DNA of 63,729 nt, counting the filler, from Dugesia japonica (taxonomy: Eukaryota), in assembly GCA_001938525.1 (NCBI GenBank). It is 6 parts of 6 records of this genome, joined end to end, with 100 filler letters (N's around TTAATTAATTAA, not from the genome) between each part and the next. Parts side by side here need not be neighbours in the genome. Positions count along the whole stretch, not along the records: positions 17,837 to 30,767 come from MQRL01585236.1; 5 more parts are not named here. The stretch is one strand, 5' to 3'. Below, in pieces: positions 18,802 through 26,852 of the stretch. Each line of letters starts with the position of its first letter. Within the stretch, counting starts at the first letter, position 1. A program made the translations under genes and the position numbers. The notes under the pieces were generated by a model. The model worked only from the letters and a program-made list of their open reading frames with translations, was not told the origin of the DNA and did no database searches.

Positions 18802-19143
18802 ATGGAACATAAAAAAACAAGAATATTTAATCCAATTTCTACAACTTTTGCAGGTGGAATTAAAAATAATGAGTTAAAACTAACATGTTCAGAAATTAAT
18901 ATTTTTGAGATACAACCAAGTGTTGAAGAAATTAAATATTCAAGATTCGCAAATGAAGATGAAGATGAAAGTGAAGATGAAAGTGAAGATGTAATTTCAA
19001 CTTCAACAAATAAATATGAACCGGTTAAAATTAATAAAGTAAATCCATTAGATGAGATAATTACTAATATTGATAATACAAAAAAAGATAATGTGTTTCA
19101 AAATCTATCTTTAAGAAATCGCTACGCTAACCTACAGACATGA
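18802..19143 (+). CDS. Hypothetical protein with acidic tract
   Basis: ORF overlapping the MCP start (ATGA). Confidence 0.6.
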   Translation: MEHKKTRIFNPISTTFAGGIKNNELKLTCSEINIFEIQPSVEEIKYSRFANEDEDESEDESEDVISTSTNKYEPVKINKVNPLDEIITNIDNTKKDNVFQNLSLRNRYANLQT

Positions 19144-20480
19144 TAGATTTAGATTATAATATTGAATTTCAACATACATCAATTAAAAATGATATTCTAA
19201 AAATTTCACCTTCATCAGGTTCAATTAACAATTTAAATGCCAATGGTGACATTGTATTCCAATCTCTGCAATCCACAAATCCATTGGACATTTGCAATGC
19301 ATTATTATACTTCAGAATTGAAATTAATATTCCAGAAGTAGCAAAAGAAAAAATAACACTCGAAAATAATTTCTTTCCAAGTTTATTTAAATTAATGAGA
19401 TTAACACTTGGCTCTACACATATTGAAACAATCAACGATCCAGGTATAATCTCTACCATGTTAAATTTCATCAGTACAACTGAAACATACAAAAAACAAT
19501 ATGGTCAAATGTCAGGTTGGATGCCAGATATTGATTCTAGTGAAATTAATAACATTGGATTTTCAGGTAGAAAAAAACTTTATAACACAATAAGAACTAA
19601 AGATATTTCTAAATTTGAAGGTTATTTTCAGTTAAGAAATTTATTTGGTTTCATGCAAAACTATAATCGATTATTATACAATACAATGTTAGAATTTACA
19701 TGTAACCGTCAAATGGAAGATAAATTAATATTCTATGGTGATAAGAATACAACAGCATCACTAACATTAAAAACACTCGAACTTCATATTCCAGAAGTTA
19801 GATTATTACCTAGAAAAGAATTATCTCTATTAGAACGTATTAATACAAATAAATCAATTCAAGTTTCATTCTTAAATAGATTATCTGCGAAATCAAATCT
19901 TGGTACTGATGGTTATTTAGCAACTAAAATTAGCTCTCTGGCATATCAGCCTAGATATATTTTAATTTGCGTAAAAGATTCAGAACATTCATTTCAAAAG
20001 AATAATAATTTATTTATTCAAAGCACATTTACAACTGAAGACAAACCTGTAACAAAAGATCCAGCAAAACCAACAGAAATAACTACTGAAAAAGTAAAAA
20101 CATATCATACTTTAAAAGGTATCCAGTTACAATTAAACAATACTTATTATCCAATCAACGAATTAAAATTTGACATAAAAAATAATGAAATGGTTTATCC
20201 GTACATGCAATATGTAAAATGTTGCCATGAATTTCTAACAGAACCACAATTATCATTAATAGATTACACTAATTTATATCCAATGTTCTGTTTTGATGTC
20301 AGTGCACATGATGATAAGATGAATATTAACAATGTTGATGTCACACTTCATATTACAAAAGATCCAGGGTTCAAAGGAACACTTTACTGGTGCATTCTTG
20401 AAGAAAAACATGTTGAAATGAAATTATCTAATAATAAAATTGTTTTAGTTGAAAATGTTAGAGGTCTAGCTATATCATAA
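19140..20480 (+). CDS. Major capsid protein (double jelly-roll, Polinton PY/hexon-like)
   Basis: 446 aa; ENNFFPSLF, LRNLFGF...Y, PRYILI, YYP, LYPMFCFDVS motifs; gene context. Confidence 0.88.
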   Translation: MIDLDYNIEFQHTSIKNDILKISPSSGSINNLNANGDIVFQSLQSTNPLDICNALLYFRIEINIPEVAKEKITLENNFFPSLFKLMRLTLGSTHIETINDPGIISTMLNFISTTETYKKQYGQMSGWMPDIDSSEINNIGFSGRKKLYNTIRTKDISKFEGYFQLRNLFGFMQNYNRLLYNTMLEFTCNRQMEDKLIFYGDKNTTASLTLKTLELHIPEVRLLPRKELSLLERINTNKSIQVSFLNRLSAKSNLGTDGYLATKISSLAYQPRYILICVKDSEHSFQKNNNLFIQSTFTTEDKPVTKDPAKPTEITTEKVKTYHTLKGIQLQLNNTYYPINELKFDIKNNEMVYPYMQYVKCCHEFLTEPQLSLIDYTNLYPMFCFDVSAHDDKMNINNVDVTLHITKDPGFKGTLYWCILEEKHVEMKLSNNKIVLVENVRGLAIS

Positions 20481-20502
20481 AAATATTACTCTTTAATGTT
20501 AA

Positions 20503-21933
20503 ATGTTGCTCTTAAAAATGTCTAAAACCAACAACCACAAGGGCAACGAAACTAATAAGTTTATATGTGATTATTGTGGTAAAATATTATTAAAGAAAAA
20601 TAAATCTCGACATTTAGATTTGTGTGTCAACAAGACCCATAAAGGGGAGAAGAAAGGTGGAGATCTTAGCGTAGCACGAGCCGGAGGCGATCTACAAAAT
20701 TCAACACTAGTATCTAAATTATTAAAACCAATAACAACAGAAAAATATCCAGGTGAACGTCATCTTTTCAAACATAATTACACTGGACCCGGAACAAGAT
20801 TAGATATTCGACTAGATGAAAATAATATTCCAAAACCTGGTGAAGAACCAATTAATAGAGTTGATCAATCTGCATTAAAACATGACATTGCGTATCACTC
20901 TGAAGATATACGCGATCGTCATATCGCAGATGTTAACCTAATACATGATCTTAATAATATTGAAAATCCAACCCGGCAAGAAAAATTTCAAAGAGCTCTT
21001 GTAAAATTAGCAATGAAAGGTAAAATAATGATTGGTAAGAGCGCAGCGATCCATAAAGGACAAGGTGGAAAAAGAAAAGATCCATATAAAAAAACTACAA
21101 TAACAAAAGATGAATCTGAATCTGACATACAACCAGAGTGTAGCGAGCAAATTAGTAAAGAACTTCACCATGAATATAGAAAAACTAAACATTTTAGAAA
21201 AGTCATTGTTCATCACAAAGATGAAATTTGGTCGGCCGATCTCGTTTTCCAAGGTCCACAACATAAAGGTAAACATGTAATTTTAACAGTTATTGATCTC
21301 TATACAAGATTTGCATTTATTGAACTTATAACTGGAAAATCTGGCCCTAAAGTAACAGAAGCATTTAAAAATATATTAACTAAAAGTAATAGAACCCCAA
21401 AGAAACTATGGACAGATGATGGTAAAGAATTTTACAATCAACATTTTGAATCTTTCTGTAAAAAAAATAATATTGAAATGTATACCACACAAAATAAAGG
21501 TAAAGCAGTTGTAATTGAACGTTTTAACCGAACATTTAAAAATAAGCTTTTTCAACATTTTACTGCCGTTGGAAATCAAAATATCTCACTTAATCTCCTA
21601 GAACAAATTGTTGATACCTACAATAACACTATACATTCAACAATTAACATTTCACCTCAAGAAGCAAGTATTAATCCAGATAAAATAAAATTAAATCCTG
21701 GATCAACTTTCACTGAAAAACAAAAGTTTAAAATAGGAGATCGCGTAAGAATAACTAAAATTCGAAAAACATTTCCTAAAGGTTATACTTTTAAATGGTC
21801 AAAGAGAATTTATATCATAACAAAAATACATCAACAAGGTCAAGAACCATTTACATATGAAATCTCACATCTTAACGGCAACAAAATACTTGGAAGATTT
21901 TATACAAATGAACTTCAAAAAACATCATTTTAA
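20503..21933 (+). CDS. C2HC finger - parvovirus-like PLA2 - retroviral-type integrase fusion
   Basis: CDYC..H..C; HNYTGPGT and LKHDIAY; DDE triad WSADL, WTDDGKEF, VIERFNRT; one gap-free ORF. Confidence 0.95.
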   Translation: MLLLKMSKTNNHKGNETNKFICDYCGKILLKKNKSRHLDLCVNKTHKGEKKGGDLSVARAGGDLQNSTLVSKLLKPITTEKYPGERHLFKHNYTGPGTRLDIRLDENNIPKPGEEPINRVDQSALKHDIAYHSEDIRDRHIADVNLIHDLNNIENPTRQEKFQRALVKLAMKGKIMIGKSAAIHKGQGGKRKDPYKKTTITKDESESDIQPECSEQISKELHHEYRKTKHFRKVIVHHKDEIWSADLVFQGPQHKGKHVILTVIDLYTRFAFIELITGKSGPKVTEAFKNILTKSNRTPKKLWTDDGKEFYNQHFESFCKKNNIEMYTTQNKGKAVVIERFNRTFKNKLFQHFTAVGNQNISLNLLEQIVDTYNNTIHSTINISPQEASINPDKIKLNPGSTFTEKQKFKIGDRVRITKIRKTFPKGYTFKWSKRIYIITKIHQQGQEPFTYEISHLNGNKILGRFYTNELQKTSF

Positions 21934-26340: not shown

Positions 26341-26355
26341 ATGAATTTTAACATG

Positions 26356-26799
26356 TTAACATTTTAACATATCTAATTTATCATATAAATCTAACATTTC
26401 AGATATTATATTCCCGAAGGTCAGCTCAGCGCCAGTGTTAAATTCTTTAGTTTTAAGTGAATATAAAAAATAAATACATAAAATGCCACATATTTCAGTG
26501 TTAAAATGTTGCACTTGAATTTTATTATAAACTTTTACATGTTCTTCGATTTCATCTAAAGGTTTTAAACCAAAAGAATCAAAGTAATAACCATCGTGAT
26601 AAGCAACCCAATGTGTTCCGAGTTGATTCGAATTTTGATAATTAAAAATGTAATTTGTTTTAGTGTTAAGTGTAACATGCTCATTTTTCATATAAATTTC
26701 TAACCCAAGATCTAAGAAGTCAGCGATAGAATATAAATCAAAATTTGTTGTTGTGTTGATTCCAAATGTTTTTAGAAAATCTAATAAATTATATGCCAT
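26356..26799 (-). CDS. Adenain-like cysteine protease
   Basis: GTHWVAY, YYFDSFG, VQ...CGILC; start MAYNLL chosen by alignment with element A (ORF track start 26838). Confidence 0.93.
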   Translation of the reverse strand: MAYNLLDFLKTFGINTTTNFDLYSIADFLDLGLEIYMKNEHVTLNTKTNYIFNYQNSNQLGTHWVAYHDGYYFDSFGLKPLDEIEEHVKVYNKIQVQHFNTEICGILCIYFLYSLKTKEFNTGAELTFGNIISEMLDLYDKLDMLKC

Positions 26800-26852
26800 T
26801 GTCCGAAGGTGAGTGTAGCGATTTTTTAAATATAACATTTAGATGTTAAATA

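Follow-up and report, generated by a model that had tools for sequence, protein, structure and literature searches.

Element B, a partial Polinton-type element at positions 17837-30767 of a 63,729-nt stretch of Dugesia japonica DNA (the window), carries a GC-rich motif with two potential GNA-triloop mini-hairpins directly in front of the start codons of its major capsid protein (MCP) and its adenain-like protease. The question raised by this locus is whether the motif is a signal for these genes or came to lie there for another reason. The first-pass annotation had offered a late promoter, protection of single-stranded DNA (ssDNA), a packaging signal or a selfish micro-element. We found that the motif family is real and common to a group of AT-rich Polintons; enrichment, copying within an element, presence or absence among relatives, and decay were each observed. 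The unit is best read as a GC-rich insertion of ≈20–40 nt around C-GNA-G triloop hairpins, and the motif probably consists of such scattered insertions, spread selfishly or neutrally within the Polinton. The window joins six contigs by N-TTAATTAATTAA-N linkers, namely B, a second partial Polinton-type element (A, 1-8554) and four host-like contigs, so that A and B are not shown to be neighbors.

Motif copies and loop specificity

All nine motif sites listed for B in the first-pass annotation read as given. The full copy on the minus strand at 19118..19139 abuts the MCP start codon (ATG at 19140) and lies within the last codons of an upstream open reading frame (ORF; 18802-19143); its GCGTAGC hairpin is intact, and the other is altered by a C>T change. 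Over 18962-19163, a contig from a separate DNA run (X4) shows 0 differences from B, and this copy is therefore no assembly error. The copy at the protease start (26800..26822, plus strand) has an intact CCGAAGG and a C>T change in its second hairpin. It abuts the ATG at 26799-26797, which matches the protease start of A, but an earlier in-frame ATG at 26838 would place the copy at about codons 6–13. In a third full copy (24497..24518, minus), both hairpins are altered; this copy is an added stretch within a duplicated piece from the beginning of ORF 23978-24430. The fourth (26412..26433, plus), with CCGAAGG intact, lies in the C-terminal region of the protease, in a stretch that exceeds its counterpart in A and in most of 17 homologues by ≈8 codons. 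Thus, four full copies of the proposed double-hairpin consensus are present, but none retains both hairpins; only a rearranged copy at 20669..20692 (plus) does so, lying in frame within the variable linker in the N-terminal part of the PLA2-integrase ORF. The half copies are GCGCAGC at 21039..21050 (plus) in the PLA2/integrase hinge, where column occupancy is 0.14; a decayed (C>T) half at 21136..21146 (plus) in the same hinge; one with an AAA loop at 23778..23789 (minus), between duplicated 72-nt blocks at 23696-23767 and 23817-23888; and CCGAAGG at 27417..27425 (minus), in a stretch of a putative minor capsid gene that is missing from the related locus L004.

Three GCGNAGC and four CCGNAGG sites make up the strict set in B, and the C-G-closed GNA triloop with a further G-C pair, which defines a d(GNA) mini-hairpin, is present. 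Compared with 1000 block-wise dinucleotide shuffles, these 7-mers were enriched in B (7 against 0.35 expected), as had been predicted, and also in A (5 against 0.29); no shuffle reached either count. The four host-like contigs contained 0, 0, 0 and 0 (0.56–1.21 expected), and three control patterns in the same test stayed at chance level. The 20-nt core was found with at most 3 mismatches at three places in the window, all in B, and at none in 100 shuffles. Nearest-neighbor DNA folding (RNA folding was not run) gave little or no structure, and no stable structure for the start-abutting copies; according to the portion consulted of a review of d(GNA) mini-hairpins, present folding models miss these hairpins.

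The motif had been placed in element B, where it is indeed present, but it extends beyond B, since A carries a family of its own with longer stems. GTA-loop hairpins lie at 664..674 (minus, 4-bp stem), between the MCP and PLA2-integrase genes; at 1325..1339 (plus, 6-bp stem), in frame in the PLA2/integrase hinge at a column occupancy of 0.09; and at 2667..2681 (minus, 6-bp stem), between genes. GAA-loop hairpins are found at 2901..2917 (plus, 7-bp stem, intergenic), 5618..5626 (plus), 6222..6232 (plus, directly past the protease stop) and 6349..6365 (minus, 7-bp stem), the last 34 nt upstream of ORF 6391. The stems differ within A and are unrelated between elements, while the loop is the same. 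The protease gene of A also has a 16-nt GC-rich palindrome with a non-GNA loop (5898-5913), in a protein loop where two relatives (L015 and L016) have hairpin insertions.

As relatives we used 80 metagenome loci with related PLA2-integrases (L001–L080, the best 80 of 122), divided into 22 AT-rich loci at ≤31.5% GC and 58 GC-richer loci. In a quick, midpoint-rooted integrase tree of 55 of the 82 rows, A and B are sister rows (66% identity over 340 columns) and share one side of a support-100 branch with 21 of the 22 AT-rich rows. Long-stem hairpins in the AT-rich loci were enriched for C-GNA-G (8 against 0.2 expected) and C-ANA-G (15 against 1.0), with other loops at chance level. Under a looser stem rule, the counts were 10 against 1.5 for GNA triloops and 21 against 5.8 for ANA. 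Other triloops, GNRA and UUCG tetraloops and pentaloops were not enriched in these loci, and 40 AT-rich distant viral loci had no GNA excess (13 against 10.2). Together, the loop controls and the distant AT-rich loci indicate that the signal obeys the DNA mini-hairpin rule and not AT-richness alone. The DNA-type GNA logic of the original proposal was thereby upheld: among the triloop, tetraloop and pentaloop classes, only GNA and ANA triloops stood out. From the part of the literature source seen, only GNA loops form mini-hairpins (PMC13037366). We suggest that the ANA loops derive from GNA by CpG deamination. Tandem hairpin pairs occurred seven times, spread over six elements.

An RNA tetraloop of the UUCG type (the reverse complement of CCGAAGG contains it) was ruled out, because the stems mirror each other around a three-base center, GTA and GGA also occur as loops, and UUCG is unenriched. 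The exact 18-nt double-hairpin pattern occurred in six IMG/VR contigs (53–60% GC) with unrelated genes and no GNA excess, which we took as chance. Among 78 distant protease-related viral loci, one was flagged for GNA excess, an IMG/VR giant-virus contig (L135) with 8 GNA hairpins against 2.9 expected; another giant-virus contig (L155) had 12 other C-G-closed triloop hairpins against 1.1.

Evidence on insertion, copying and decay of the hairpins

The four full copies in B have 13–16 of 20 letters in common. Most departures from the common pattern hit CpG; four of the nine are CpG transitions, including the single change that breaks one hairpin in each start-abutting copy. The departures strike stems as well as the loop G, in too few copies for a rate. 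CpG observed/expected was 0.53 in A and 0.57 in B, compared to 0.81–1.14 in the four host-like contigs. The flanks of two B copies showed repeats of 2–3 A/T letters only.

Presence and absence among the relatives, together with the recurrent copies, support the selfish micro-element option of the first-pass annotation. The integrase of L004 has a 27-nt in-frame hairpin insertion that L010, L025 and L061 do not have, and an identical 16-mer occurs in this integrase and in a 9-residue insertion in the ATPase of the same locus; relatives lack both sites. L015 has extra 35-nt intergenic and 39-nt in-frame hairpin insertions relative to L014, to which it is 82% identical. In ten close pairs picked by hand, three of seven hairpins fell in 207 gap nt as opposed to 24,106 aligned nt, a density of 14.5 against 0.17 per kb that rests on three events only. 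Hairpin codons were found in columns occupied by less than half of the rows in 14 of 33 cases, or 12 of 31 without two double-counted L016 rows, compared to 1056 of 17,392 codons overall (6%); these are non-independent events, and the overall figure was left as computed before the L016 rows were removed. Hairpins sit in the PLA2/integrase hinge of A, B, L011, L014, L016 and L025, with a different sequence in each. Contigs of related copies in the host's DNA runs bypass three motif regions of B, with joins in run X4 at 26794-26843, 24463-24579 and 24418-24684, and joints across 27337-27479 in both X4 and a second run, X10. A 36-nt insertion in L002 relative to L005 holds two further structures that our rule leaves uncounted: a GAA triloop closed by a T-A pair, and a mini-hairpin of the tetraloop type, CC-GAAA-GG.

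In the established model, Polintons replicate by protein-primed strand displacement. Single strands exposed in this process would allow GNA mini-hairpins to fold, resist nucleases, exclude single-stranded DNA-binding protein (SSB) and stall synthesis; template switching or templated end-joining might then copy the hairpin-bearing patch to a new site. Purifying selection would leave copies where they are tolerated (gene junctions, protein ends, linkers and surface loops), and CpG transitions would turn these copies into forms with ANA loops or broken stems. Survival only at tolerated places would account for two copies that abut start codons without any promoter role. The sources, as far as consulted, report that GNA mini-hairpins withstand nucleases and bind SSB poorly (PMC13037366), that short hairpins stall polymerases and trigger template switching (PMC3874155), and that Pol theta makes stem-loop templated insertions (PMC11292364). 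We tentatively suggest, as a possibility and no firmer, that the seven-base C-GNA-G fold, with neither a gene nor fixed ends or sequence, stalls and redirects the element's own PolB, and that unrelated stem families arise and multiply repeatedly in this way. If so, the mobility of GC clusters could be reconstituted most simply with Polintons, which have a single small polymerase, from purified enzyme and short oligonucleotides.

Several observations weigh against spread by insertion. The strict 7-mer shows no enrichment when all 80 relatives are taken together (42 against 47.7 expected), and the 58 GC-richer loci have no long-stem C-GNA-G hairpin against 5.5 expected, which together confine the trait to the AT-rich members; the GC cut-off was picked after the whole-set result was known. 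(In the GC-richer set, these hairpins look depleted, the opposite of the AT-rich set.) Among gaps of at least 9 nt in the ten pairs, three of nine contain a hairpin, two of them from one pair, and 19 of the 31 hairpin codons lie in well-occupied columns. A 24-residue insertion in the B MCP and many other indels have no hairpin, so linkers gain sequence anyway. The X4 joints, among the 15 listed of 145 at an 80% likeness setting, mostly have letters between them that are not known, and hence indicate that B's stretch is absent there rather than clean empty sites. No fixed length, fixed ends or target duplication was found among the insertions, and no enzyme for the spread. The mostly intergenic set in A fits a signal as well, and the MCP start could be read in only two relatives.

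The B MCP insertion comprises ≈24 extra residues at 20022-20111 that most homologues do not have and that contigs of X4 and X10 skip. In a back-translation test on 107 homologous proteins, GNA scored 8.0 per 1000 inserted residues, indistinguishable from control loops at 4.0–11.5; hairpin-like peptides in these proteins are leads only.

Position relative to genes and rival explanations

If the motif were a late hairpin promoter of the N4 type that serves the capsid and protease genes, this would explain why each of the two copies directly precedes an ATG and has its GNA strand as the template, and N4 virion RNA polymerase (vRNAP) promoters do use GGA- or GAA-capped hairpins, with a 5-bp stem and a T7-like polymerase, in the part of the source consulted (PMC13037366). 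However, conservation of position in relatives, which such a promoter or a position-fixed packaging signal implies, did not hold up. Of 83 homologous starts read (rows whose match begins past residue 60 or that have no ATG were dropped), nine were B's own, and only one of the other 74 had a hairpin at most 45 nt upstream. The corresponding count was 1 of 24 for AT-rich Polinton starts, with 0 of 2 for MCP and 0 of 7 for protease starts of other loci. The protease of A is 69% identical to that of B, and yet only A/T-rich sequence precedes its ATG, the nearest hairpin (5618..5626) being 137 nt away. The B stems are 2–3 bp long and occupy no fixed place, compared to the 5 bp of N4, one hairpin is broken in each start copy, and seven further copies lie away from starts. 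No RNA polymerase family matched among the 17 ORFs scanned, B being incomplete. Nor is there a template-strand bias: the ORFs of A, B and the 22 AT-rich relatives contain 38 hairpins, 26 sense and 12 template, with all three frames in use. A promoter role of the motif is unlikely, and for the N4-like form we put the likelihood very low. RNA reads on B from the raw runs X13 (n = 15) and X14 (n = 201) were uninformative on expression, with five of 216 at least 95% alike, nearly all below 90% and no cluster of transcript starts listed; a look-up listed no RNA source for the stretch. GC-rich motifs next to start codons in AT-rich elements can be tolerated insertions that mimic promoters, which calls for caution elsewhere.

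Nor do we give more than very slight credence to a function of the hairpins at the RNA level, in which they would mark transcript ends or affect translation at gene borders after the model of the giant-virus hairpin rule. In its favor, eight of the 11 hairpins in A are intergenic, one of them 7 nt past a stop, and there is a mild sense-strand excess (26/38). Hairpins lie inside ORFs in all seven cases in B and in 28 of 30 in the relatives, however (38 of 48 overall, where ORFs make up 83% of the DNA), the UUCG and GNRA tetraloops typical of RNA are unenriched, and the start-abutting copies gave no stable structure in the DNA folding described above. Alternatively, each hairpin could arise de novo: the 3' end at a break would fold back onto a C-GNA-G seed and be extended, and nothing would be copied from one site to another. 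The differences in stems between elements and within A are as expected from such an origin, and Pol theta extends stem-loops primed by 2 bp, leaving inverted insertions (PMC11292364, consulted in part). It cannot yield the four similar B copies or the identical L004 16-mer in two genes, and the host contigs, exposed to the same repair machinery, contain none; we regard it as quite improbable. Finally, the hairpins might be useful, position-free structural marks on displaced single strands, serving nuclease protection, SSB-free landing or restart and packaging cues, with selection keeping a few while the sites turn over. This would fit the retention of one loop across the clade despite unrelated stems, as well as the nuclease resistance, poor SSB binding and occurrence at phage and plasmid priming sites described for GNA mini-hairpins in the portion consulted of PMC13037366. 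Against it, most copies in B and its relatives are decayed (ANA 21, GNA 10), SSB bound again after a G>A change in the loop in the test cited by the same source, and many relatives and the entire GC-richer clade do without the hairpins. We consider it unlikely, and favor selfish or neutral spread of short insertions.

Related systems, carrier elements and samples

Double hairpin elements (DHEs) are found in the mitochondrial DNA (mtDNA) of Allomyces. Among the known systems closest to the present one are the GC clusters of yeast mtDNA (GC42; Wu and Hao 2015, PMC4478555). In the text consulted, these too are short palindromes rich in GC, scattered through an AT-rich replicon and found in some relatives but not in others; they are denser in indels, their units merge and are shuffled, and they have no enzyme gene of their own. 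Dispersed GC-rich palindromic copies, presence/absence and a higher density in indels (on three events) were all found here. GC42, however, is mitochondrial, of constant length, with conserved stems and a duplication of AG/ACT, whereas the units described here are 20–40 nt long, with ragged ends, 2–7-bp stems, a conserved GNA loop, CpG decay and mostly in-frame coding sites; the 27-, 35- and 39-nt insertions have no common duplication. The repetitive and double hairpin elements of sponge and fungal mtDNA similarly form lineage-specific families with tandem doubles and repeated independent spread, but they are organellar and mostly intergenic, and conserve stems while the loops vary, the reverse of the present case (PMC2800124, as far as seen). 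Because the fixed-unit and target-duplication features fail and the loop is kept instead of the stem, the hairpins are not filed as a member of either group. They are best read, from this comparison, as an apparently new variant of gene-less hairpin micro-elements that resembles GC clusters. The amplification mechanism of the yeast clusters is left open in the part of PMC4478555 consulted. The loop-defined variant in compact Polintons points to ssDNA physics and the replicative polymerase, not an intron-encoded enzyme, as the driver.

The d(GCGNAGC) hairpins at the phage G4 origin, RSF1010 ssiA and N4 vRNAP promoters (PMC13037366, consulted in part) have the same C-GNA-G fold with any middle base, but each is one site at a fixed position, recognized by a primase or polymerase, whereas the present ones are many, shifting and decaying; no cognate primase or polymerase reading them was found. 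Miniature inverted-repeat transposable elements have terminal inverted repeats, a fixed duplication and a partner transposase; here, there were no common ends or duplication, and no genome-wide search for a partner was made. The literature searched, with most subscription papers and supplements outside its scope, held no description of internal mini-hairpin elements in Polintons, and the consulted text on adintovirus-like elements (Starrett et al., PMC8502044) does not mention them. The palindromes of Polinton-like viruses are long (52 nt in one subtype) and terminal, in the part of the source seen (10.64898/2026.07.28.741278), unlike the short internal hairpins here. Through hairpin insertions of this kind, viral capsid, protease and integrase proteins can acquire new peptide loops and extended N-termini.

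By its predicted genes, the carrier would be a Polinton/Maverick, with PolB (C-terminal part), rve integrase, packaging ATPase and double jelly-roll capsid; adintovirus-like elements share these and the adenain-like protease (PMC8502044, consulted in part). The double jelly-roll MCP (446 aa) is encoded at 19140..20480 (plus; PF21738, E = 3e-19), followed by a parvovirus-type PLA2 domain fused to an rve integrase (476 aa) at 20503..21933 (plus; PF08398, PF00665). This ORF has 217 homologues, with both domains in most of those listed. In adintoviruses, the PLA2X protein has PLA2 and a C-terminal pX-like domain, whereas in B, PLA2 is N-terminal to the integrase in one ORF. An A32-like packaging ATPase lies at 22154..23002 (plus; PF04665, E = 6e-8). 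The adenain-like protease at 26356..26838 (minus) is weakly supported (Peptidase_C5, E = 0.057), with adenain as the top three PDB matches (E 0.13–0.2) and invariant His, Asp and Cys. The ORF at 27083..27631 (minus) has no family match and is labeled a putative minor capsid protein from its position; it stops ≈70 residues earlier than the L004 homologue does, which suggests partial decay of B. At 29490..30767 (minus) lies the C-terminal portion of a protein-primed PolB, recognized by its likeness to an L011 protein (49% identity over 166 aa; PF03175 E = 2e-22 for the latter), with no Pfam match of its own. The contig end cuts this gene; B spans its whole contig, and the element ends lie outside it. 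Tandem repeats of 33, 61 and 72 nt at the left end of B (17887-18410) are possibly subterminal.

Tandem arrays of the AAATGTT(A/G) type lie at gene junctions in both elements (B: 22996-23111, 27656-27789 and 28674-28777; A: 4012-4171), and several ORFs begin in TAAATG or AAAATG. The arrays, which may resemble poxvirus late promoters, are more plausible than the GC motif as a conserved expression signal. A sigma-70 scan stayed at chance level (a bacterial-type model, inapt for a eukaryotic element), and an Rfam scan of B gave 0 matches.

IMG/VR scans with the MCP, an MCP alignment and an integrase alignment as queries found no relatives, and a prokaryote scan gave two distant integrases that were left out of the analysis. 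On 18431-27800, run X4 gave 35,983 contigs and X10 (a second organism label) 5,407, mostly 80–95% alike, an abundance that points to a very large and diverse family of related elements in the host. The five artificial linkers of the window are at 8555-8654, 17737-17836, 30768-30867, 42984-43083 and 52544-52643. In the host-like contigs, ORF 38023-38901 had no Pfam match; mariner- and gypsy-type fragments, judged by eye, lie at 35784-36095, 46912-49226 and 55638-55961, and an inverted repeat pair of 251 nt (96%) has its arms at 45434-45684 and 50264-50514.

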